A DNA stretch of 64,000 nt from Escherichia phage vB_EcoM_SA35RD. Below are positions 1-43,629 of this stretch, piece by piece (position 1 is the first letter of the stretch; the number at the start of each line of letters is the position of its first letter). The notes under the pieces were generated by a model. It did not search any database. It was not told where the DNA came from and was given only the letters and a program-made list of their open reading frames with translations. The position numbers and the translations under genes were made by a program. The stretch lies in sequence record OL960577.1; one strand, written 5' to 3'.

Positions 1-126
1 GCTTACAAGTTTCTTACGGTCTTTATCGGACAAATCATGAAATGAATGGGCCTTTTTATTTATAGCGGCTTCTAATTTACCTGCACTCACTCGAGCTTCA
101 GTAATAAATTCTTGATATGTTTTCAT
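1..126 (-). CDS. ipIII: internal protein, IPIII-like, N-terminal 42 codons only (3' end off-window)
   Basis: Minus-strand ATG at 126..124; translation MKTYQEFITEARVSAGKLEAAINKKAHSFHDLSDKDRKKLVS resembles T4 IPIII N-terminus as I recall it, with the capsid-targeting sequence MKTYQEFI.E. Confidence 0.6.
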   Translation of the reverse strand, partial: MKTYQEFITEARVSAGKLEAAINKKAHSFHDLSDKDRKKLVS

Positions 127-151
127 TTTGTTCCTATTGTTTTAATTTATG

Positions 152-466
152 TTATTCTTTAGGGAAGTTTTTAGAGTATGCATCATAAAGTTTATTACCA
201 ATACGGCGGAAGACTTTAGCTGCAAAACGGTTTTCAGGGTTTTTAATCATGATTTGCATCATGTAAGTTCCTGCATCCGAAAGAGCTTCTTCATAGTACC
301 CATTAATTTCTTTAAGAGTCCTACGTTTACCACCAGGACCATCAACAGTAATTTTCCATTTACCTGTAGAAGTGCGGCTCGGTGGCTCAACTTGTTCAAT
401 CCAAATATAACCACCTTCAACGCGTTGGTTGGCGGATTCTGCAATAAATTCTTTATACGTTTTCAT
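152..466 (-). CDS. internal-protein-like head protein (CTS-bearing), 104 aa
   Basis: ORF starts MKTYKEFIAE (IP capsid-targeting sequence, gp21-type cleavage after E10); SD AAGGAA upstream; early promoter at 497..526. Confidence 0.6.
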   Translation of the reverse strand: MKTYKEFIAESANQRVEGGYIWIEQVEPPSRTSTGKWKITVDGPGGKRRTLKEINGYYEEALSDAGTYMMQIMIKNPENRFAAKVFRRIGNKLYDAYSKNFPKE

Positions 467-496
467 TTTTGTTTCCTTGTTTGTTTTGATAGAGTA

Positions 497-526
497 ATTA
501 TACCATATTAATACTTAAGCGTAAAC
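497..526 (-). promoter_or_regulatory. early sigma70-type promoter (GTTTAC-18-TATAAT)
   Basis: Minus strand: -35 GTTTAC (521..526), -10 TATAAT (497..502). Confidence 0.55.
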
Positions 527-529
527 AAT

Positions 530-790
530 TTAAGCTTTACCGCCAGAAATAATTCCGAAGTTGTTAAAATCGTATCCAATATCGTCAACATCTACTTTAG
601 GACTTGCTGCAACATAAGCAATTTCACTACGTTTTGCATAGGTGTTGATTTCTTTACCATCGCCACCTAAGAAAGAATACCCATTACGTTTTAATGAGCC
701 AAAGTCTTCCGCATCACCAATGAAAGCTTTAACTTTAAATTTGGGGTCTTTGGCATCTGATTCAGCGATAAATTCTTGATACATTTTCAT
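530..790 (-). CDS. internal-protein-like head protein (CTS-bearing), 86 aa
   Basis: ORF starts MKMYQEFIAE; tightly packed between the previous IP gene and denV. Confidence 0.6.
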   Translation of the reverse strand: MKMYQEFIAESDAKDPKFKVKAFIGDAEDFGSLKRNGYSFLGGDGKEINTYAKRSEIAYVAASPKVDVDDIGYDFNNFGIISGGKA

Positions 791-796
791 TTTTCC

Positions 797-1222
797 TTAG
801 TAAATTGATTTACCATAGTATTTGTACCAAGTCGGACGTTGAGCAATTTTTTCATCTAAGCGTGCTTGACTTATCGCAATGGACGCTTCGGACGGGTCAT
901 AATTATTACGAAATTCGGCAGGGATGTCGGAAATATCCTGGACTGTCGTGTCCTTGATTTTGAAACCACGTTTCAAGCATTCAGCGATTAGCTCGATTTG
1001 ACGTAAACGTAAAAATTCGAGTTTGTCGTAAAAGAATGTTACGTGACCTGTGCCTAAGATAAATGTTGGAGAGATTTTAAAATCCTTTACACGTTTACCG
1101 TTTTGAACATGTTTACGGACTGCACCAAATACGCGTGGTAATTCACGATACTCAGCCATAAGATGTTGGTCGGACAGTTCAGAAACAAGTGTTAAATTGA
1201 TACGAGTCATAATTTCCTCCAA
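797..1222 (-). CDS. denV: endonuclease V, pyrimidine-dimer DNA glycosylase/AP lyase
   Basis: 141 aa; [12 protein letters not shown]...[16 protein letters not shown]...[22 protein letters not shown] is near-identical to T4 endonuclease V as recalled. Confidence 0.9.
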
Positions 1223-1237
1223 GTAGTTGATGAATGT

Positions 1238-1267
1238 ATAGTATCAAAACCCTTGGAGGAAGTAAAC
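1238..1267 (-). promoter_or_regulatory. early promoter cassette upstream of denV, inside a 9-bp inverted repeat
   Basis: -35 GTTTAC (1262..1267), 18 bp, -10 TACTAT (1238..1243); inverted-repeat arms 1215..1223 and 1252..1260. Confidence 0.5.
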
Positions 1268-1268
1268 A

Positions 1269-1550
1269 CTATTTTTCTGAAGCGCCTGAAATATATTTTT
1301 CAAGACGTTGTTTCATCAGCGAGCCGTTCTTAGCGATTTCTTCTGGTTTATCGCACATACGCAACAAGGCTTCAAGCTTAGCGATATCGCTGGTACGTTC
1401 AAATTTGCGAGTATCTATCTTACTAGCAAGTTCAGAAATACGTGCTAATAGACTTTCAGCTTCAACCAAAGCTGCACCTAGCTTAGTTGCAAATGTGTCA
1501 GTAGCTTCGTTAAGAATAGATTCTGATAAAAATTCACTATATGTTTTCAT
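1269..1550 (-). CDS. internal-protein-like (CTS-bearing), 93 aa
   Basis: Internal ATG at 1550 gives [10 protein letters not shown]; ATG overlaps the lysozyme stop (ATGA); the 1565 start adds a 5-aa extension not compatible with a CTS. Confidence 0.55.
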
Positions 1551-2035
1551 ATATACGCTTTCCAAGTTCCTGTTTTAAATGTTGAGATTACGCGTTTCGC
1601 GCGATTAGGTGTCTGACGATACCATTTAGATTGAGCTAGATTTACTGCCGCTTCATCCCAACGTTTCTGTTTAAGCATACGAAGAGAATTAGTAAAACCG
1701 GCGACTCCTGCTACACCCATTTGGAAGACCATATTGACCAATGCACACCGACGAACTGCATCTAAAGAATCATATACCGGTTTAAGTTTAGCATTACCCA
1801 AGATTCCGCGAACGGCTTTATCAACGTCTTCATTAAATAGCTTTTCAGCCTCATCAAGGGTAATTGTACCGTTGCATTTACGACCGATCATTCTGTCAAG
1901 TTCAGCTTTAGCTACGGCTAAAGACGGGTTCTTTGTTACCAAGTGGCCTATGCCAATCGTCCAAAAGCCTTCAGTGTCTTTGTATAAAGTCAGTCTAAGA
2001 CCTTCGTCATTACGAAGCATTTCAAATATATTCAT
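1547..2035 (-). CDS. e: lysozyme (endolysin), T4 gene e homolog
   Basis: [32 protein letters not shown]... aligns along full length with T4 lysozyme; ATG at 2035 with SD GGGAGG; the track's 2047 start is GTG. Confidence 0.95.
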
Positions 2036-2069: not shown

Positions 2070-2528
2070 TTATAGGATAGTAGTGAGCACCTTATATAAT
2101 GATTTGCCCATCACATATTCCCATTGAGAAGGTTTAATTAAAGCGAACGCATCAAATTCAGGAATCTGTCGTCCGTCTGGGAATGTATGATAGGAATTAC
2201 AAGCACTGTTTCTGAATTGCTCGTGCTCTACAGGGATGGTATATAGGAACAGATGAATATTCTTATTGTCTGAGTAATGATGTTCACCTAGGTCTTTCAG
2301 GAAGGCAGGGTCATATTGTGTAAACCCAGTTTCTTCTTCGCATTCGCGAATAGCGGCTTCAATAGGAGATTCACCGGGCTCGACACGTCCTTTAGGAATA
2401 TCCCAGCGATGAGCTAAAGAACCTTTAGGACGAGAACCAGTTACACGCCCCATGAATAATTCTTTATCTTCGGTAAGGAAAATAATACCGGCTGATAGTT
2501 CTTTCACTTTATTTTTCTTACTCATCAT
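2070..2528 (-). CDS. nudE: Nudix hydrolase (NudE/e.1-like)
   Basis: 152 aa; Nudix box GRVEPGESPIEAAIRECEEETG; position immediately upstream of e as in T4. Confidence 0.85.
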   Translation of the reverse strand: MMSKKNKVKELSAGIIFLTEDKELFMGRVTGSRPKGSLAHRWDIPKGRVEPGESPIEAAIRECEEETGFTQYDPAFLKDLGEHHYSDNKNIHLFLYTIPVEHEQFRNSACNSYHTFPDGRQIPEFDAFALIKPSQWEYVMGKSLYKVLTTIL

Positions 2529-2754
2529 CTCGGTCCCATGATTTGGCCATTAATTCGGACATAAATTCTTCAATGCGCGTTTCTTTAGATGGACTTTCAC
2601 TATTAGAGACCGCAAGTTTGTAATCTGCAATAGGACAGAACATATCAAGATCCGTATTAAGGTCGTCTTTGATTTTTTCTTCTGACACATCTTTATCGTA
2701 TGTGTACAGATAACTATCACATGATTCTGATTTAATGTAAATTGCTATACTCAT
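2518..2754 (-). CDS. hypothetical small acidic protein
   Basis: ORF; start chosen at ATG 2754 (MSIAIY), which overlaps the stop of the upstream gene as ATGA. Confidence 0.5.
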   Translation of the reverse strand: MSIAIYIKSESCDSYLYTYDKDVSEEKIKDDLNTDLDMFCPIADYKLAVSNSESPSKETRIEEFMSELMAKSWDRDDE

Positions 2755-3242
2755 CTCAAATTCCTGCATTCAGTAATAAAACATTCAACTTCGTTATTCT
2801 TGGCCTTTATCTTGTCTTTACGTTCCTGTAAACTACTTTTAACAAGATTAATAATGATGCCTACAGTACCTCCACCAATTATACCGCCAATTATACTTAC
2901 GATAGCAGATGCTAATAAGATAGCAATAATATCAACAAAACCGAAAGAACTCACCTTAGTACTAAAAAACCATACCGACGGTACAAATATAATCCATCCT
3001 GTTATCCATTGGCACTTATTGAAAAACTTTTCAAGATCAGCTTGAGTTGTTCGTATTACTTCATCGATAGGTTGATATCCATTAATGTATCTGTTCACGA
3101 TAATACCTGCTGGTTTGTCGATTTTAAATTCTTGGCAAATACGTTTCACTAAGTAGGATGGACATCCTGTCCAATCCACTGAATAGTACGAAATACCTTC
3201 ATTGCCGTCGTCAATATTAGACCAATATGTTTTGTTAATCAT
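2751..3242 (-). CDS. small membrane protein, FIxECR-tail family
   Basis: 163 aa; hydrophobic segments WIIFVPSVWFF and IIAILLASAIVSIIGGIIGGGTVGIII; C-terminus ECFITECRNLR. Confidence 0.6.
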   Translation of the reverse strand: MINKTYWSNIDDGNEGISYYSVDWTGCPSYLVKRICQEFKIDKPAGIIVNRYINGYQPIDEVIRTTQADLEKFFNKCQWITGWIIFVPSVWFFSTKVSSFGFVDIIAILLASAIVSIIGGIIGGGTVGIIINLVKSSLQERKDKIKAKNNEVECFITECRNLR

Positions 3243-3928
3243 TACCAGCCTTCCATAGGGAATTCCAGATAAACTTGGGCATTGACGCGAATTTCATTGG
3301 TAATCTTTTTAACTCGGTCTGTATTACGAGATACACGTCCGAACCAACGCCATCCATTACTAATTGCACGAGAACCAGTGTGCCATGTTTGCCAATCAAA
3401 CTGAAGAAGAGTACGGTCTGGAGCTTCCCATTTCTCTAGTTCGCCTTTTTCGATTTTTTCGAGGACTTCTTTGTGCCACTGGCGATAGATAAGTTCGCCA
3501 TCAGGAATCTGACTGAACTCTGCAGTTCCTGTTGCAAAATGAGTAGGACACACATCAGCGTTAACAAGACCAAGAATATGTTCAGACAAATAGCGAGGAT
3601 TGTCATAGTCAGGTTGTCCTGCAGTAATAAAATGTTGACCAACCGGAATATCCGGGCGTGGTACGTCATCATGGTGATAACCTGGGATAGCAGGATACCA
3701 ACCAGGCATCAGCATGTGGACTCGTGAATCAAATACAACCTGGTCGGTGTTCCAATCATCTGGCAAGTTCATAATGAAAGAGCGAGTAATAGGACCGCCG
3801 TTATTATAAGCAAATTCTAAACTACAGTTGAAGAACATAGGCTCGTTCTTGATTTTATCATTAGAAATACCGCCGGCAAAACCACCTACTGCACGAGCTT
3901 GACTATTAAACACTTTAGAACTATTCAT
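3242..3928 (-). CDS. hypothetical protein, 228 aa
   Basis: Long ORF with SD GAGGAAAA; no confidently recognised domain. Confidence 0.6.
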   Translation of the reverse strand: MNSSKVFNSQARAVGGFAGGISNDKIKNEPMFFNCSLEFAYNNGGPITRSFIMNLPDDWNTDQVVFDSRVHMLMPGWYPAIPGYHHDDVPRPDIPVGQHFITAGQPDYDNPRYLSEHILGLVNADVCPTHFATGTAEFSQIPDGELIYRQWHKEVLEKIEKGELEKWEAPDRTLLQFDWQTWHTGSRAISNGWRWFGRVSRNTDRVKKITNEIRVNAQVYLEFPMEGW

Positions 3929-3929
3929 A

Positions 3930-4235
3930 TTATTTTCCTCGACATTCTTTAATGAAATTTTCTAGATTGGTAGATTCAATAGCTTTTTTACGAGCTTCTG
4001 CGTGTTCTTCTTCGGACAATTTACGTTTATAATTGACCCAGACATTATGGTCGAAACCAGTCGTGGCATATAATAACAATGCTCCAACGAATAGCAAAAA
4101 CGGCGATAAGAATACAAAACCAGGAACACCATCCATATCGTAAGCCTTTTGTAATACTGCAACAGAAAGAGTTGCGTAAAAAGGTGATGCAAGTATTGTT
4201 AAAAGACCAATTCGATTGGTTTCTGTTAATTTCAT
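3930..4235 (-). CDS. small membrane protein, FIxECR-tail family
   Basis: 101 aa; two hydrophobic helices; C-terminus ENFIKECRGK; SD GAGGAG; early promoter at 4267..4296. Confidence 0.6.
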   Translation of the reverse strand: MKLTETNRIGLLTILASPFYATLSVAVLQKAYDMDGVPGFVFLSPFLLFVGALLLYATTGFDHNVWVNYKRKLSEEEHAEARKKAIESTNLENFIKECRGK

Positions 4236-4266
4236 AATATTCTCCTCATGTTTTAATAGGACTACT

Positions 4267-4296
4267 ACTATAACATAGTCCTATCAGTTTGTACAC
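4267..4296 (-). promoter_or_regulatory. early promoter cassette with palindrome around the -10 (PeSL-like)
   Basis: -35 GTGTAC, 18 bp, -10 TATAGT; 8-bp inverted repeat ATAGGACT/AGTCCTAT (4257..4264 and 4278..4285). Confidence 0.5.
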
Positions 4297-4497
4297 TTAT
4301 TTTGACATTTCTTCGATGTCACGACGATACCCATCACGAACTTCACGAAGAGCTTCAAGGCCACACATAGGCTCGATACCAGTAATGTGAACTTGATTAA
4401 TCTGATACTCTACATCTTCTAACTGAGCGAAAACATAACGACGTTCTGCTGCACAACCAGGTTTAGCTTTACCGAAACGTTTATTCAAAGTAGTCAT
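4297..4497 (-). CDS. hypothetical small protein
   Basis: Start at ATG 4497 (MTTLNKRFGK) with SD GGAG, downstream of early promoter 4536..4565. Confidence 0.45.
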   Translation of the reverse strand: MTTLNKRFGKAKPGCAAERRYVFAQLEDVEYQINQVHITGIEPMCGLEALREVRDGYRRDIEEMSK

Positions 4498-4535
4498 TTT
4501 TATATCTCCATTCACTCATTTGTTTTGATAGGTCT

Positions 4536-4565
4536 ATAGTATCAACAACTACAGACCTTGTAAAC
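4536..4565 (-). promoter_or_regulatory. early promoter cassette (PeSL-like)
   Basis: -35 GTTTAC, 18 bp, -10 TACTAT; flanking inverted repeat AGGTCT/AGACCT. Confidence 0.5.
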
Positions 4566-4577
4566 TGTTTTGTGAAA

Positions 4578-5534
4578 TTATTTGAAAGGTTTTACCATAT
4601 GAAAGTTTTGTTTGAAACGCTTGACGTAATCGTCGTGTCCTAAGCTTTGGTACATACTTACTACTTTGCTATAATTTTCCCAAGCGAACTCACGGAACCA
4701 TCCTGATGTGATTGATGTACAGACCTTTTCAAGGGCCATCATAAAACTATCACGTGGATGGATTTTAAAGTCGTTAGGAATCTGAGAACGTTCTAATGCT
4801 AGTACACATGATTCTTCATATACACCGGCCAATTTGACCATTTCTGGTAATGATTCGAACTTCTCGCGTGAGGTCATGACTTCAGAACCATCTTTCATGT
4901 AAAATGTATAAGCCGGACGGTCTGTTAGTGCAATAGCTTCGTGAATAGTATCATGGTCATATGTATAGATGTCATCTTTAAAGAACGCACTTTTAGAAGT
5001 GTCAAGAACAGGGTGAGCATAGTTCAAGGTTTCTTTCTGGCGTTTCAGCATAATTTCAGTAAGTTCATCGTTCAGTTTAACACCTTTACCACGAAGATAC
5101 TGAATATGGTTCATAGTCTTTAAAAAGAATGGATTATTTTTCTTGAAACGATGAGACATCTTAATTGCAAGACATATCTCAGGAGTTGCCCAGTAAAACC
5201 CGTTCAAACGGTCTTTAGTCAAATTTTTCTTGGCGTATTTTAAAAGGTCATAAGAAGACGTGAAATCTTCAGGAGTGAGTTCACCGACTAATTCACGGAC
5301 ACTAGTGATTGCCGGAACAATATATGCTTCAAAATGAGTTTCGCGTCCATTATGGAAGCATTTGAAAACTTGGACATCAGGGTTATCTTGGTGAACATAT
5401 ACACCCATCATTTGATTTTTGAATGCATTCCAAGAACCTTGGTCCGCAATAAAGTCCCAATCACTATTTTTAATAGCGCTAGAATCAATAAGACCGTGAT
5501 AGTGAAGTGCACGAGAACCAATAACTAACATCAT
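4578..5534 (-). CDS. hypothetical protein, possible nucleotidyltransferase fold
   Basis: 318 aa; N-terminal LVIGSRALHYHG...DWDF resembles the GS...DxD motif of Pol-beta-type nucleotidyltransferases (ANT-like); fold call is tentative. Confidence 0.65.
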   Translation of the reverse strand: MMLVIGSRALHYHGLIDSSAIKNSDWDFIADQGSWNAFKNQMMGVYVHQDNPDVQVFKCFHNGRETHFEAYIVPAITSVRELVGELTPEDFTSSYDLLKYAKKNLTKDRLNGFYWATPEICLAIKMSHRFKKNNPFFLKTMNHIQYLRGKGVKLNDELTEIMLKRQKETLNYAHPVLDTSKSAFFKDDIYTYDHDTIHEAIALTDRPAYTFYMKDGSEVMTSREKFESLPEMVKLAGVYEESCVLALERSQIPNDFKIHPRDSFMMALEKVCTSITSGWFREFAWENYSKVVSMYQSLGHDDYVKRFKQNFHMVKPFK

Positions 5535-5562
5535 AATATTTTCCTCGGATTAATTCATTAAC

Positions 5563-5802
5563 TTAAATTTCACGACATGCGATATTATATTCATCCCAGA
5601 GGTCATCATGTGAAGCCTCTACCAATGGAACGATTGTACCGTTTATGTCTTCATTATAAGGGCAAATTGTACAGTGCGCATCTTCGAATCGGATGCCTTT
5701 GTGTTCAGATTTTTTATAACGCATATCGAATATCTTTGCAAACTTTTCACGAGTAATGGTTTTACCAACCACTTTGGTTCCGATACTTTCGTAATAAATC
5801 AT
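5563..5802 (-). CDS. hypothetical small protein
   Basis: Start at ATG 5802 (MIYYES), which has SD GGAG; ends ...NIACREI; early promoter at 5831..5860. Confidence 0.5.
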   Translation of the reverse strand: MIYYESIGTKVVGKTITREKFAKIFDMRYKKSEHKGIRFEDAHCTICPYNEDINGTIVPLVEASHDDLWDEYNIACREI

Positions 5803-5830
5803 TGTGGACTCCATTTGTTTTGATAGGACT

Positions 5831-5860
5831 ACTATAACATAGCCCTATCTTGTTGTAAAC
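5831..5860 (-). promoter_or_regulatory. early promoter cassette (PeSL-like)
   Basis: -35 GTTTAC, 18 bp, -10 TATAGT; inverted repeat GATAGGGCT/AGTCCTATC around the -10. Confidence 0.5.
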
Positions 5861-5864
5861 TGTT

Positions 5865-6062
5865 TTAGCAAGAATAACTAGATGATACCCAGCCTTGAAC
5901 AGTGATACTATTGTGGGATAATGAGATCGCGTCCTGGAGATTCAGACCTGCGTTATCTTCAATCCATAATGTAACTTCTTCGCGTTCTTCTGTTGCAATT
6001 TGGAACAGGTTTTCCAGAGCAGCTACTGCCGTACGTACAGCACAATCTAATTCACGAGACAT
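5865..6062 (-). CDS. small protein, GWVSSS..C-tail family
   Basis: 65 aa; C-terminus QGWVSSSYSC; SD AAGGAA. Confidence 0.55.
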   Translation of the reverse strand: MSRELDCAVRTAVAALENLFQIATEEREEVTLWIEDNAGLNLQDAISLSHNSITVQGWVSSSYSC

Positions 6063-6071
6063 ATTGTTTCC

Positions 6072-6344
6072 TTAGCAAGTGTGAGAAGATGCGACCCAAC
6101 CACCAGTTTCGAGGCTCAGGTTGTAGTCGTATTGGTAAACGTCAGCCCATTCAGCATAGCCATTTTTTGTACAACGTTCAAGATCGGCTTTAAGATGTCC
6201 GGGTGAATGATAGGTTCCACCCATACCGTAAGCTGGATACAAGTCGAATGTTGTGTTTTGTTTATCAGCAATTTCTTTGGCAGCCTCAATAGCTGCATAG
6301 ATTTTTGCTACAGCTTCAGCCAGTTCGGTTTGTTCTTTAGACAT
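6072..6344 (-). CDS. small protein, GWVSSS..C-tail family
   Basis: 90 aa; C-terminus GGWVASSHTC; shares KEIAD...YG.GGTYH core with the next paralog. Confidence 0.6.
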   Translation of the reverse strand: MSKEQTELAEAVAKIYAAIEAAKEIADKQNTTFDLYPAYGMGGTYHSPGHLKADLERCTKNGYAEWADVYQYDYNLSLETGGWVASSHTC

Positions 6345-6353
6345 AATGATTCC

Positions 6354-6659
6354 TTAGCACAACGCAGAAGACGAAACCCAAGCACCTTCAGTAATAACGT
6401 AACCATTACCTTCACGCTTAACATCGCCACCATTATTTTCAATTTCATCTTTCATCCACTGGGATACGATTTCACCCTTAGGATAATAAGTACGACCGCT
6501 ACCATAATCACCTACAGAAAATGATACGGCATATTGGTCTGCGATCTTTGTTGCTTCTTCTTCGATACGTTCAGCTTGATTCAGAAGTTTATAAATTGCA
6601 TCTGAAGCGGATTTGGCATTATTAAACTCTGGTACTTTAATTTCAATAATCTTACTCAT
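6354..6659 (-). CDS. small protein, GWVSSS..C-tail family
   Basis: 101 aa; C-terminus GAWVSSSALC; ATG overlaps the upstream stop (ATGA). Confidence 0.6.
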   Translation of the reverse strand: MSKIIEIKVPEFNNAKSASDAIYKLLNQAERIEEEATKIADQYAVSFSVGDYGSGRTYYPKGEIVSQWMKDEIENNGGDVKREGNGYVITEGAWVSSSALC

Positions 6660-7015
6660 TTTCTACATTCCTTAATAAAGTTTTCGATTGTTTCATTTTC
6701 ACGTCTAGCTAGGAGTTCATTATAACTAATCATTTGAGAAGCGTAAACCTTTTTATTTTTCTTGTTATGGTTTATAAAATCGTAGTAAAAATAGACTACA
6801 GTACAAAATGATGCGATGGATGCAAAGGCTTGGGTATACCGTAAGTCCTGCCATTGGTCTGTGAATCCACCAGTGTTCCCTATAAATCCTAACACAACGC
6901 CGTCAATAAGAAATCCAACTAATCCAAAGGCAAATCCCATGCCAATACTCATAATAAAAATTAGAATGTTCTCACCAAGAGAAGGCCATACGGTTAAGAG
7001 TTGAGGCTTTTGCAT
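6656..7015 (-). CDS. small membrane protein, FIxECR-tail family
   Basis: 119 aa; hydrophobic helices; C-terminus IENFIKECRK. Confidence 0.6.
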   Translation of the reverse strand: MQKPQLLTVWPSLGENILIFIMSIGMGFAFGLVGFLIDGVVLGFIGNTGGFTDQWQDLRYTQAFASIASFCTVVYFYYDFINHNKKNKKVYASQMISYNELLARRENETIENFIKECRK

Positions 7016-7389
7016 CTTATTTCCTTAACGAATTCCATAGCTTCTTCATATTCATACTTTTTAATAGCTTCATCATACTGAGCTTGGGCTTTTGCGCACT
7101 GAACTTTCCATTCTCTTAATCGGGCTCTGTGATGACGGCCTTGGTGCCAATATCCCACCCAATTAATAGGCATTAATAAAAACGGTACAATAAGTGGTGC
7201 GACGAACATTAATGAAAATGCTGCATCAGACGATATAACTTCACTAGAATCTAAAACAGCTCCTATAATCATAAAGATTAAAAATGCTAAAGCTAAAATA
7301 GGGCCAAATAGTACTTCATTTGGGATTAATTTACGCTTGTATTCATACGCCCAGGGCTTACTTGGCATGTATAGGGTTGGCTTTGACAT
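6994..7389 (-). CDS. small membrane protein, FIxECR-like tail
   Basis: Start at ATG 7389 (MSKPTLY) directly after the conserved GAATGTAGAGAAT junction motif; two hydrophobic helices; tail MEFVKEIRCK. Confidence 0.55.
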   Translation of the reverse strand: MSKPTLYMPSKPWAYEYKRKLIPNEVLFGPILALAFLIFMIIGAVLDSSEVISSDAAFSLMFVAPLIVPFLLMPINWVGYWHQGRHHRARLREWKVQCAKAQAQYDEAIKKYEYEEAMEFVKEIRCKSLNS

Positions 7390-7954
7390 ATTCTCTACAT
7401 TCCATAATAAATTGCTCAAGGATTAAATTGTTAGTGAAATTAGGACTAACAACCATAGTTTCATAAAGCGCATCAATAGCACTTAAAGCATCAACTCTTT
7501 TAAGCAAAGGCTTGCCTTCATACATAGTTTCAGAATCGACGATTAAAGTGAAGTAGTATTTTTTATTATTGGCCAGAACTTCTGTATCAATATAAAACAT
7601 GTTAGACCTTAAAAGCTTGTCTCTAAAGCCTACGTAATCATCTGAACGTTCACTGATATATTCCCATTCGGTGTTTAAACAACAAACAGACCACGTAGGA
7701 GCAACGAAATCAGTGAATCTAATATCATGGTCTGCAACTAGTTTAGCAATAGCTCCGATATCATGAATCATAATACCTGGGGCTAATAAAGATTTTCGGT
7801 TATTTGCATATTCAGTTGTCTCATAAGAAGACGACCAGTACCATTTACGTCCAGTTGCAACATATCGTAATGAATCAACTAAAGACGTAGGTGGATTTAC
7901 CTTATCTCGGAACTCTTCGAACATTGAGTCAATATCATTATTTTGGTTTCGCAT
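7358..7954 (-). CDS. hypothetical protein with FIxECR motif near C-terminus
   Basis: Start at ATG 7954 with SD AAGGAG; ...EQFIMECREYVKANPIHAK; 3' end overlaps the next gene by 32 nt. Confidence 0.6.
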   Translation of the reverse strand: MRNQNNDIDSMFEEFRDKVNPPTSLVDSLRYVATGRKWYWSSSYETTEYANNRKSLLAPGIMIHDIGAIAKLVADHDIRFTDFVAPTWSVCCLNTEWEYISERSDDYVGFRDKLLRSNMFYIDTEVLANNKKYYFTLIVDSETMYEGKPLLKRVDALSAIDALYETMVVSPNFTNNLILEQFIMECREYVKANPIHAK

Positions 7955-7973
7955 GTTAACTCCTTTATTATCC

Positions 7974-7995
7974 AAAAGGAGGACCGGGGTCCTCC
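7974..7995 (-). terminator. rho-independent terminator
   Basis: GGAGGAC-CGGG-GTCCTCC hairpin followed by TTTT on the minus strand, just after the stop of the 8004..8597 gene. Confidence 0.6.
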
Positions 7996-9909: not shown

Positions 9910-10374
9910 TTATTTAATTTGTTTAGCAGACCAGATACGGTCTTTAATAAGTTTTTGGATATCTTCAACATACTCAAGGCTATGAGCGTGAGGATTATCT
10001 TTGAAGCTATGTGCTCGTGCCAGTTTCTGGCCTTCTGTTTTGATTACTAAAAGCTCTTTAAGAATTGCTTCATACTTAGAAATAATTCCTTTGGCGATAT
10101 TTTTTTCTTGAGCTGCTTTAGGGTCTGTTTTTGGCGCAGGTGCTTTACCTGTAGCTTTCTGGAACAATTCACCTGATGCAGCTAGGCTTTTAAAAACTCG
10201 GCTAACAGTATTAGCATTAGTAAAACCTTCGGCTTTAAAATCTCTAATAAAACGGAAACGTTCTTCATCAGAGGCGTCTTTGTAAGAATATTTACCTGCT
10301 TGAATTGCTGCAATCGCAGCGGCTTTTACATCTGAACTAGATTGTTCAGTCAAAAATTCAGCGTATGATTTCAT
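9910..10374 (-). CDS. internal-protein-like (CTS-bearing) basic protein, 154 aa
   Basis: Starts MKSYAEFLTE (CTS-like); Lys/Ala-rich; flanked by rho-independent terminators at 9877..9903 and 10419..10447. Confidence 0.6.
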   Translation of the reverse strand: MKSYAEFLTEQSSSDVKAAAIAAIQAGKYSYKDASDEERFRFIRDFKAEGFTNANTVSRVFKSLAASGELFQKATGKAPAPKTDPKAAQEKNIAKGIISKYEAILKELLVIKTEGQKLARAHSFKDNPHAHSLEYVEDIQKLIKDRIWSAKQIK

Positions 10375-12786: not shown

Positions 12787-13074
12787 TTACAGAAGAGTTT
12801 TTGCAATAATTTTAAGCTGAGCTACAGAAATGTGCTTAGTTTTAAACAGTGCAGTCTCTTCAGCCGGAGAGATAACAATAGTAGCGCCATCTTTCTTAGC
12901 AGACCATCCATCCCCTAAGTAAACAGTACCTTTTACTTCTTCGCCGTCAACCAGACTAATCATTGGTTTACCCTCACGTCCTTTATTTGCTTTAATAACT
13001 TCGGAAGTAAGGGTTGCTTCGGTTAGAGTAGAAACGTTAGCATCAGGTGATATAAATTCTTTATAGGTTTTCAT
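12787..13074 (-). CDS. ipI: internal protein I-like (CTS-bearing), 95 aa
   Basis: Starts MKTYKEFIS; sits immediately downstream of 57B as ipI does in T4; promoter at 13109..13138. Confidence 0.6.
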   Translation of the reverse strand: MKTYKEFISPDANVSTLTEATLTSEVIKANKGREGKPMISLVDGEEVKGTVYLGDGWSAKKDGATIVISPAEETALFKTKHISVAQLKIIAKTLL

Positions 13075-41717: not shown

Positions 41718-42142
41718 TGTATCTTATCCCTGAATCTTATGAATTGGTACTCGAAAATGTCGAAGCACTTATTCCTGAAGCACAGGGCCGAATCGATGCA
41801 TTGTCTTCTGCTCTCGATATTGACGATATAAATACTATTATCGAGAACATGCTTGAAACTGAAACGGATTTAGCTGTTGCAATGGCTTCCATTATTAATG
41901 AAGAACAGTTAAATGAGTTTATCGTTAAACATGTTTCTTCTCGTGGTGAAGTCACCCGCACTAAAGACCGTAAAACTCGTGAACGTAACGCGTTCCAAAC
42001 CACCGGTCTTTCTAAAGCAAAACGTAGACAAATCGCTCGTAAGGTCGTTAAAGCTAAAAAAGCTAACCCTTCAGGCCAAGTTAAAGGCTTGCGTAAGCGT
42101 AAAAAGGCTCTTAAACGTCGTAAAGCATTAGGATTAAGCTAA
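41717..42142 (+). CDS. 68: prohead core protein gp68
   Basis: 141 aa; basic C-terminus; position as in T4. Confidence 0.8.
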
Positions 42143-42783
42143 TGAATAAACCCGAGTTACTTATTGAAACTTGGGGTCAACCCGGTGAGATTATTGATGG
42201 CGTTCCAATGTTGGAATCTCATGATGGAAAAGATTCTGGCTTAAAACCAGGGCTTTATATAGAAGGTATTTTTCTTCAGGCAGAGGTTGTTAACCGAAAT
42301 AAACGTTTATATCCTAAACGCGTTTTGGAAAAAGCAGTAAGTGACTATATTAAAGAACAAGTCGCAACCAAACAAGCCCTTGGAGAATTAAACCATCCAC
42401 CTCGTGCAAATGTTGACCCTATGCAAGCCGCTATCATTATTGAAGATATGTGGTGGAAAGGAAACGATGTATATGGACGTGCTAGAATTATTGAAGGCGA
42501 CCATGGTCCCGGCGATAAATTAGCTGCTAATATACGAGCTGGTTGGATTCCAGGTGTTTCCTCTCGTGGTCTTGGTTCTTTAACCGACACCAATAAAGGG
42601 TACCGTATCGTGAACGAAGGATTTAAATTAACCGTCGGCGTAGATGCCGTATGGGGACCTTCTGCTCCAGATGCTTGGGTTACTCCTAAACAAATATCAG
42701 AATCAGAAAATTCGGTGGAAACCACCAAAAACAGTGCTGATGAAGCATTTAAAGCTCTCGCAGAGAGTTTAAAAGCATTATAA
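42142..42783 (+). CDS. 21: prohead core protease gp21
   Basis: 213 aa; position and length as T4 gp21. Confidence 0.9.
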   Translation: MNKPELLIETWGQPGEIIDGVPMLESHDGKDSGLKPGLYIEGIFLQAEVVNRNKRLYPKRVLEKAVSDYIKEQVATKQALGELNHPPRANVDPMQAAIIIEDMWWKGNDVYGRARIIEGDHGPGDKLAANIRAGWIPGVSSRGLGSLTDTNKGYRIVNEGFKLTVGVDAVWGPSAPDAWVTPKQISESENSVETTKNSADEAFKALAESLKAL

Positions 42784-42816: not shown

Positions 42817-43629
42817 ATGATCAAAGAACAACTTTTGAAAGAAGCTCAGAACATCGAGACTTCAGTTGCTCTTAATAGTGTTTTCGAATCAGTAGAACTG
42901 TCTCCGGACGTTAAAGCTAATTTCAGCACTGTATTCGAAGCCACCGTTAAGCAGGAAGCAGTCAAACTGGCTGAATCTCATATCAAAGCCATCGCCGAAA
43001 AGGCCGAAGAAGAAGTTGAAAAGGCTAAAGAAGATGCTGAAGAGAAAGCTGATAAAAAATTGGCTGAACAAGCTTCTAAATTCCTAGACCATCTTGCAAA
43101 AGAATGGCTCGCAGAAAACCAAATCGCAGTTGATAAAGGCATTAAAGCTGATTTGTTCGAATCCATGCTTGGTGGTCTGAAAGAACTGTTTGTTGAACAT
43201 AACGTTGTTGTTCCAGAAGAATCTGTAGATGTTGTAGCAGAAATGGAAGAAGAGCTGGCCGAACATAAAGAAGAAACCGCTCGTTTGTTCGAAGAAGTTA
43301 CCAAACGTGATGCATATATCAATTACGTTCAGCGTGAAACCGCTATTAATGAAAGCGTAAAAGACCTGACTGAATCTCAGAAAGAAAAAGTTATTGGCCT
43401 GGTTGAAGGTATGGATTATTCTGACGCATTTGGTACTAAGTTAACTGCTATTGTAGAAATGGTTAAAGGTTCTACTAAAGAAGAAGCCGCTATTACCGAA
43501 AGTATAAATACAGTTGACAATGACGCTGCCGGTCTTAATTTTGTTGCCGAAGCAGTTGACACTACCACAACTCAGGTAGAACAGAATTCTAATGTAAGTT
43601 TATATGCGAAAGTCGCATCTCGTTTCTAA
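42817..43629 (+). CDS. 22: prohead core scaffold protein gp22
   Basis: 270 aa, acidic coiled coil; late promoter at 42779. Confidence 0.9.
   Translation: MIKEQLLKEAQNIETSVALNSVFESVELSPDVKANFSTVFEATVKQEAVKLAESHIKAIAEKAEEEVEKAKEDAEEKADKKLAEQASKFLDHLAKEWLAENQIAVDKGIKADLFESMLGGLKELFVEHNVVVPEESVDVVAEMEEELAEHKEETARLFEEVTKRDAYINYVQRETAINESVKDLTESQKEKVIGLVEGMDYSDAFGTKLTAIVEMVKGSTKEEAAITESINTVDNDAAGLNFVAEAVDTTTTQVEQNSNVSLYAKVASRF
43503..43510 (+). promoter_or_regulatory. possible late promoter for gene 23, inside the gene 22 coding sequence
   Basis: Exact TATAAATA 137 nt upstream of the gene 23 ATG; no closer match found. Confidence 0.35.

Follow-up and report, generated by a model that had tools for sequence, protein, structure and literature searches.

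We analyzed a window of 64,000 nucleotides from Escherichia phage vB_EcoM_SA35RD (sequence record OL960577.1; this whole stretch is called the window hereafter), and found at positions 1-1565 four genes that begin with a capsid-targeting sequence (CTS), interleaved with denV and lying directly downstream of the lysozyme gene e. By every sequence criterion applied (leader, processing residues, locus, and the presence of gp21 and gp22), these are internal-protein (IP) genes. The interpretation that we favor, with a probability of about 0.65, is that they represent cassettes whose products are packaged through the CTS, cleaved by gp21 and ejected, likely as inhibitors of type IV restriction nucleases, and that their order results from cassette exchange. 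The locus, its gene families and their variability are already documented, and the value of the present analysis is therefore that of a parts list rather than of a discovery.

Four internal-protein genes between e and vs.8

All four open reading frames (ORFs) lie on the minus strand and open with M-K-x-Y-x-E-F-[IL]-x-E. The pattern MK.[YF].[ED]F matches six times in the six-frame translation of the window, always on the minus strand and at the first ATG of an ORF, versus a mean of 0.025 matches in mononucleotide shuffles, and is therefore not due to chance. M1, K2, Y4 and F7 are present in all four ORFs, as well as in two CTS genes located further along the window (IPe and an IPI orthologue, see below). 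It is known that the first 10 residues of IPIII are enough for incorporation into the head, that residues 4 and 7 of its leader serve targeting and residues 8 and 10 processing, and that gp21 cleaves after L/I-x-E (PMC9026906). This processing motif, [L/I]-x-E, is found at residues 8-10 of each of the four proteins, as ITE in IPII, IAE in both Ip10 and IPb, and LSE in IPa. The window also encodes the gp21 prohead protease (42142..42783, plus strand; Pfam Peptidase_S77, E value 2.8e-107), which should be the enzyme that cleaves off the CTS, and the gp22 scaffolding core protein (42817..43629, plus strand; Pfam T4_CASP, E value 1.5e-89), which is thought to be bound by it. When compared all against all by BLASTP, the four proteins align with one another over their first ~11 residues only, indicating that their mature regions are unrelated. 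Motif scan and BLASTP thus bear out the original prediction of four minus-strand CTS genes with unrelated bodies in this interval.

Every gene at positions 1-2100 is on the minus strand. In the order of transcription these are nudE (2528..2070), e (2035..1547), IPa (1550..1269), denV (1210..797), IPb (790..530), IPc (466..152) and IPII (126..1), the last of which starts at position 126 and is cut by the start of the window. The e gene codes for a T4-type lysozyme, annotated as endolysin e in ST0, AlbertHofmann and RB69, and forms the upstream boundary of the locus. The denV gene codes for endonuclease V, a pyrimidine-dimer glycosylase with 91% identity to T4 DenV over 137 amino acids; it is not an IP gene, and sets two IP slots apart. 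The IP genes sit between e and a vs.8 homologue, as in T4, RB69, PP01 and T2. The order in the window is e-IPa-denV-IPb-IPc-IPII-(vs.8), whereas that of T4 is e-ipIII-ipII-denV-vs.8, and the claim that the two orders differ was therefore correct.

Concerning the phage itself, positions 1-2100 are 98.0-98.4% identical to Escherichia phages AV110, AlbertHofmann (Bas47) and ST0, all members of the genus Mosigvirus, and are matched by 512 phage records in total, 111 of which have at least 80% query coverage. Judged by these identities, the window belongs to a Mosigvirus, that is, an RB69-like T-even phage. RB69, the type of Mosigvirus, carries e, RB69p127 (IPa), denV, RB69p125 (IPb), ORF124c (IPc), ORF123c and vs.8, and shares e, IPa, denV, IPb and Ip10 (the IPc of the window) in the same order at 94-99% identity. 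The layout e-IP-denV-IP-IP-IP is in fact common to RB69, ST0, AlbertHofmann, APCEc01 and more than 100 deposited genomes. The locus is therefore not specially rearranged in this genome, and since RB69 has the same layout as the window, the non-T4 order is normal for the genus and has long been public. It follows that the novelty which the original prediction implied for a rearranged and expanded locus does not hold, all the more as several of the genes already carry annotations as internal head proteins (Ip10, Ip5-like). From these comparisons, we classify the locus as an ipII/ipIII-type variable IP locus, in an order that is standard for this phage group and differs from that of T4.

Mature regions of the four proteins

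IPa (1269..1550, minus strand) is an Ip5-like protein of 93 amino acids assigned to PHROG 3499 ('internal head protein', E value 2e-46), with homologues in 495 phage records. It is 48% identical to Ip5 of T2 and of Bas37 and 51% identical to Ip5 of PP01, over 84 amino acids and with E values of 1e-21 to 4e-23; its membership in the Ip5 family is indicated by full-length homology and by the assignment of both to PHROG 3499. A second L-x-E site (L-N-E) is present at residues 13-15 of IPa. T2 Ip5 has no E10, and its only such site (I-T-E) lies where IPa has residues 13-15. A further difference is one of location: Ip5 is found at the ipI locus in Tequatroviruses (T2, PP01, Bas37_0261), whereas IPa adjoins e.

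IPb (530..790, minus strand; leader MKMYQEFIAE) is a protein of 86 amino acids that belongs to the RB69 gp125 family and to PHROG 2667 ('internal head protein', E value 1.8e-20). It is 94% identical to RB69p125, itself annotated as 'internal head protein', and the family is present in 216 phage records. The predicted mature IPb has 76 amino acids and an isoelectric point (pI) of 5.2, and that of the predicted mature IPa is 6.3.

IPc (152..466, minus strand; 104 amino acids, leader MKTYKEFIAE) corresponds to Ip10. It belongs to PHROG 3966 ('unknown function'), is found in 188 phage records, and is 96% identical to 'ip10' of PP01 and 72% identical to Ip10 of Shigella phage SP18, with homology over the full length. 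Ip10 is, like Ip5, a named IP variant of T-even IP loci, known from PP01, SP18 and the VR phages. The predicted mature protein has 94 amino acids and a pI of 9.6. An exhaustive HMMER search with mature Ip10 against 1.84 billion representatives gave one genuine relative, a protein of 97 amino acids with 53% identity. Six further matches are giant repeat proteins (FG-GAP, RTX, CBM6, Calx-beta, filamin), which we judged to be compositional (Gly-rich strand motif) and rejected.

The last gene (1..126, minus strand; leader MKTYQEFITE) had been described as IPIII-like. Its 42 codons represent the 5' part of an IPII orthologue, with 90% identity to T4 IPII over 42 amino acids, and it resembles IPIII in the leader only. 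The full-length homologue in ST0 (gp259) is 93% identical to T4 IPII and belongs to PHROG 7857 ('internal virion protein', E value 4.5e-55); its length of 100 amino acids equals that of IPII, as compared to 193 for IPIII. Alignments of window ORFs with IPIII, whose mature region has 183 amino acids, cover only the first ~17-38 residues, which are mostly shared leader, and the window has no IPIII gene, unlike T4. No BLASTP similarity to the mature region of IPI* was found beyond the leader in the four ORFs, and the mature regions of IPa, IPb and Ip10 are unrelated to those of T4 IPI, IPII and IPIII.

The charge of these proteins bears on the possibility that IPs are packaged but act mainly on the phage head itself, as DNA counter-ions (a role formerly suggested for the basic IPs of T4) or assembly helpers, instead of inhibiting defences. 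The predicted mature Ip10 and IPII are both basic (pI 9.6-9.7), like T4 IPII and IPIII, T4 heads contain ~300 copies of each IP, the IPs bind DNA when salt is low, and head assembly is slowed in mutants of IPIII (PMC9026906). However, mature IPa and IPb range from neutral to acidic. On laboratory hosts T4 can do without its IPs, each of the three has a specific nuclease target, and the rapid turnover of cassettes among near-identical phages is more readily explained by an arms race than by a structural role. We consider a role mainly in the head very unlikely, and prefer to see these proteins as injected nuclease inhibitors.

We also estimated the ratio of nonsynonymous to synonymous polymorphism (pN/pS) from six Mosigvirus comparisons, which all share the window sequence and in which IPb shows 1-7 changes per comparison. 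Values are 0.03 for IPa, 0.00 for Ip10 and 0.59 for IPb, and 0.06-0.10 for e, nudE and denV; Ip10 has zero nonsynonymous changes in four Mosigvirus comparisons. IPa and Ip10 are thus under strong purifying selection, which argues that they are functional genes. The pattern of IPb reflects decay or, alternatively, diversifying selection.

IPb, and possibly other cassettes, might accordingly be decaying passengers that have no current function and are carried along by recombination at the CTS. This would agree with the contrast between a pN/pS of 0.59 in IPb and 0.00-0.10 in its neighbours, with truncated or internally deleted alleles in the relatives P0007, P0014 and PhAPEC2, and with the ST0 annotation of IPb, which begins at the second Met. 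Yet full-length IPb is kept in 209 phage records (Mosigvirus, Dhakavirus-like and Salmonella phages) at 65-96% identity, an arms-race protein would likewise show a raised pN/pS, and the ratio derives from the small and mutually dependent counts given above. Decay therefore appears to us distinctly unlikely, and IPb is retained here among the candidate nuclease inhibitors.

Probable cassette exchange around denV

The gene order of the window can be placed among those of its relatives by cataloguing the CTS ORFs around denV in 36 T4-like contigs. In this sample, the slot between e and denV holds 0-2 CTS genes and that between denV and vs.8 holds 0-3, and the two slots are occupied by ~15 unrelated mature-region families (the 74 CTS ORFs gave 17 BLAST clusters, from which a false positive and the IPe reference, which belongs to another locus, were subtracted). 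Depending on the phage, IPII and IPIII may precede or follow denV, as in e-IPII-denV-IPIII and e-IPa-denV-IPb-IPIII, and IPII itself lies downstream of denV in the window and upstream of it in T4. The order in the window is therefore one combination among many. Even among close relatives the slots vary. The last one contains IPII in the window, ST0, AlbertHofmann and AV110, and an unrelated CTS gene of ORF123c type in RB69 and APCEc01, while in two Mosigvirus contigs from IMG/VR an IPIII gene directly follows IPb, in the slot held by Ip10 in the window. Bas37 has no IP gene at the e-denV-vs.8 locus. We also observed that T2 and PP01 lack denV at the locus (e-ip4-vs.8 and e-ip10-ipIV-vs.8, respectively), so that denV behaves as another optional cassette among the IP genes.

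Some of the junctions can be mapped precisely. Between the window and APCEc01, identity is ~99% along Ip10, the spacer that follows it and the CTS codons (~30 nucleotides) that open the next gene; past this point it collapses, the window carrying IPII and APCEc01 an ORF123c-type gene. At the other end, ST0 and APCEc01 regain identity ~35 nucleotides upstream of the vs.8 start codon. A third case is provided by the contig IMGVR_UViG_2974787500_000001, whose positions 2185-3870 align with positions 845-2520 of the window and include a patch of ~480 base pairs that is 96-100% identical, with 98-100% for the IPa cassette. This patch, at window positions ~1650..1170, runs from the 3' end of e through IPa and the spacer into the 5' end of denV. 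On its two sides identity drops to 60-80%, in a genome whose background is of Tequatrovirus type. Such a distribution of identity points to a recent transfer of an IP cassette between genera with different DNA modifications. Nucleotide identity to the Tequatrovirus copies is 88% for Ip10 and 93% for IPII, and ~71% for the nudE-e segment.

The non-T4 order would thus have arisen from cassette exchange by homologous recombination, with junctions in the conserved 30-nucleotide CTS-coding sequence and in early-promoter/stem-loop elements, and the mapped junctions support such exchange. More than 30 IP variants were already known to Arbiol et al. (2010; PMC2839356), who proposed that promoter-early-stem-loop (PeSL) elements may drive the shuffling of IP genes. 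As cited there, Repoila et al. (1994) located such elements at two variable IP loci, and the same work is cited in both PMC2839356 and PMC12373910 for its description of the plasticity of IP loci. The arrangement in the window resembles PeSL shuffling in that an early promoter and a stem-loop flank cassettes and that close genomes differ by replacement of whole cassettes. It differs in that one junction lies within the coding CTS, and not in an intergenic element. Moreover, the T-even elements are based on T4 early promoters and have AT-rich stems, and are regarded as analogues, not homologues, of the PeSLs of RB49 and phi1 (PMC2839356). The rearrangement is therefore an instance of a process already described, to which we add the detail of one junction inside the CTS-coding sequence.

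The clearest of these elements lies upstream of denV (1214..1267, minus strand). It consists of an early promoter, with a -35 box GTTTAC (1267..1262) and, after 18 nucleotides, a -10 box TACTAT (1243..1238), and of a stem-loop whose 10-base-pair arms, as read from the sequence, are TTCCTCCAAG (1261..1252) and CTTGGAGGAA (1223..1214). The predicted RNA fold has an energy of -19.3 kcal/mol and a z score of -3.5. The 3' arm of the stem contains the Shine-Dalgarno sequence of denV, and read-through transcripts should therefore mask the ribosome-binding site, whereas transcripts initiated in the loop should not. The T4 denV element has the same design, and an early promoter with a stem-loop is also present upstream of T4 ipIII, ipII and ipI, and of IPI in the window. 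Upstream of Ip10 we found an early-type promoter-like site (497..525, minus strand; GTTTACG, 17 nucleotides, TGgTATAAT, with 10/12 consensus positions and an extended -10), and no long stem was seen there, the promoter standing alone. GTTTAC-type elements of this kind also precede T4 ipIII, ipII, denV and ipI. The start of IPb lies 6 nucleotides past the denV stop codon. IPa has no separate promoter, and its start codon overlaps the stop codon of e (ATGA, 1547-1550), which suggests translational coupling of IPa to the lysozyme. The ribosome-binding site of e itself lies under a T4-like hairpin (-13.7 kcal/mol, z score -4.1).

Candidate targets and further CTS genes

The window IPs share with those of T4 the leader, the neighbourhood (e...denV...vs.8; 57B-trna.4), small non-conserved mature regions, and the presence of gp21 and gp22. 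From this likeness we infer a similar fate. The ~10-residue N-terminal CTS would carry each protein into the gp22 scaffolding core of the prohead, where gp21 would cut after Glu10 (in IPa possibly also after Glu15) and leave mature proteins of 76-94 residues in the head together with the DNA. At infection these would be ejected with the DNA, and would most likely bind and block type IV nucleases (of the GmrSD/BrxU family, or McrBC) that otherwise cut DNA containing arabinosylated cytosine. Different mature regions would then mean different nuclease targets.

Several published results speak for such a function. T4 IPI* blocks the GmrSD nuclease of CT596. More recently, Silas et al. (2025; PMC12373910) showed that Ip1, Ip2 and Ip3 of T4 each block a different GmrSD type IV nuclease, the target of Ip2 being a GmrSD/BrxU-type enzyme from ECOR21 and that of Ip3 a GmrSD from ECOR17 encoded by two genes, without cross-protection, and proposed the IP loci as hotspots for inhibitors of type IV restriction. 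In phage Bas37, the CTS protein Bas37_0260, encoded at the ipI locus, inhibits McrBC (bioRxiv 10.1101/2025.11.20.689424). The suggestion that the four proteins are candidates for injected anti-defence effectors is in line with both studies; it is reasonable, and is already the view of the field. By analogy, the best-supported reading for IPII of the window is that it would act as T4 Ip2 does, and IPa, IPb and Ip10 may be injected inhibitors of other modification-dependent nucleases. The DNA of this phage carries arabosylated cytosine, whereas that of T4 carries glucosylated hydroxymethylcytosine (glucosyl-hmC), and the relevant host nucleases may therefore differ from those met by T4. Mosigvirus DNA, with its arabinosylated cytosine, is cut by BrxU and by the GmrSD enzymes of CT596 and UTI89.

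However, a number of observations weigh against this interpretation. When ip4-10 were assayed against 15 GmrSD groups, no reproducible inhibition was obtained, in a screen that employed glucosyl-hmC phages (PMC12373910); the 'ip10' of that screen could not be confirmed as the Ip10 of the window, since the supplements do not give the ip4-10 sequences. No mature region matches a known anti-defence protein, a Pfam family or a solved structure: for IPa, IPb and Ip10, nothing was above threshold in Pfam, nothing was found in NCBIfam or PADLOC, and the PDB gave only noise with E values of at least 0.09. AlphaFold2 models were unusable, with a mean predicted local distance difference test (pLDDT) score of 46.9 for Ip10 (alignment of three sequences) and 40.1 for IPb (alignment of five). 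IPb evolves in a relaxed or diversifying manner and has the truncated alleles in relatives mentioned above. Our literature search found no virion proteome of a Mosigvirus. Finally, the canonical late promoter TATAAATA is absent directly upstream of IPb, Ip10 and IPII, its only copy at positions 1-2100 being inside the IPII coding sequence; late synthesis would therefore need protein made early or read-through from e. Over the entire window this box occurs 19 times, versus 7.8 expected, mostly on the plus strand and in the region of late structural genes (37204-58850).

The negative screen also raises the possibility that IPa, IPb and/or Ip10 are injected effectors against a target other than a type IV nuclease, be it another early defence or a step of host takeover, as with Alt. 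This packaged ADP-ribosyltransferase illustrates the use of CTS-type packaging for a function other than restriction (PMC9026906), and beyond the leader the window IPs are unrelated to the McrBC inhibitor Bas37_0260. Yet every IP whose target is known (Ip1, Ip2, Ip3 and Bas37_0260) inhibits a type IV nuclease, and the screen combined glucosyl-hmC phages with a limited enzyme panel, not the arabinosylated DNA of Mosigvirus. A further hint comes from the HIDEN-SEQ supplementary tables, in which insertions in the Ip5 gene of Bas37 are 4-fold depleted on CFT073 with respect to K-12 (adjusted p reported as 0). This could be taken as a sign of a target outside type IV restriction, but CFT073 does encode a GmrSD homologue, c5421, and we regard the depletion as a weak lead on function. 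Altogether, a target of another kind seems unlikely, and inhibition of type IV nucleases stays our preferred interpretation. Kinship of the window IPs with Bas37_0260 was itself considered and rejected, as BLASTP and TBLASTN comparisons with the window IPs and with the whole window match its first 10-20 residues only.

As to the content of the IP repertoire, the four genes at positions 1-1565 stand as predicted, and they are not the only ones, as two more CTS genes lie outside this interval. One of these is the IPI orthologue (12787..13074, minus strand; 95 amino acids), which is directly downstream of 57B at the classical ipI locus and aligns with T4 IPI through the mature region. It has the longer kind of leader typical of IPI, in which residues 17-19 (L-T-E) form the cleavage site. 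Four residues are reported to distinguish the IPI of RB69 from that of T4 (PMC6024577).

The other gene, IPe (9910..10374, minus strand; 154 amino acids, leader MKSYAEFLTE), was found by motif scan between e.8-like genes and the genes for tRNA-Arg/Met, a position outside both classical IP loci. IPe homologues are present in 510 phage records, and the annotated features are all 'hypothetical protein' among the 30 matches listed; the corresponding PHROG family is likewise of 'unknown function'. A CTS-like N-terminus is conserved across the family, and an intrinsic terminator and a late-promoter-like box, AATAAATA, are found upstream of IPe. In Bas37, the same position holds two CTS ORFs (bas37_0243 and bas37_0244). 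A distant kinship of IPe and IPII (39% identity over 43 amino acids, leader included) was rejected, since the mature regions, when compared profile to profile, scored a probability of 0.3%. IP genes have been described as confined to two loci (PMC2839356), which makes IPe the least documented item in the window. We propose, tentatively and with somewhat less than even prospects, that IPe and its relatives may mark a third, unrecognised IP locus, and/or that IPa, IPb and Ip10 may act against nucleases specific for arabinosylated cytosine or against other defences.

Two groups of ORFs elsewhere on the minus strand of the window were also observed. At positions 2751-7975, five ORFs share the C-terminal motif F-[IV]-x-E-[CI]-R (with endings CFITECRNLR, NFIKECRGK, NFIKECRK, FVKEIRCKS... 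and QFIMECREY...), and several of these ORFs resemble membrane protein genes. A tandem of three small ORFs (5865..6062, 6072..6344 and 6354..6659) shares the ending W-V-[SA]-S-S-x-x-C, and has the appearance of a small paralogous family in which a C-terminal Cys is conserved.

IPs represent one of the few classes of phage counter-defence that are delivered as pre-made protein with the DNA, so that their action precedes all phage gene expression. The four IPs whose targets are known all block type IV restriction nucleases, which decide whether T-even therapeutic phages infect wild E. coli. The window gives the full IP set of one Mosigvirus, consisting of IPI, IPII, an Ip5-like protein, Ip10, a member of the gp125 family and IPe, each of them a candidate that can be paired with host nucleases active on arabinosylated DNA. 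The remaining value of the locus thus lies in IP candidates from a phage with arabinosylated DNA and in a possible third IP locus. If IPe does represent a true IP locus, it would contradict the published two-locus view, and if targets specific for arabinosylated DNA do exist, they would have been missed by the published GmrSD panel, which was run with glucosyl-hmC phages.

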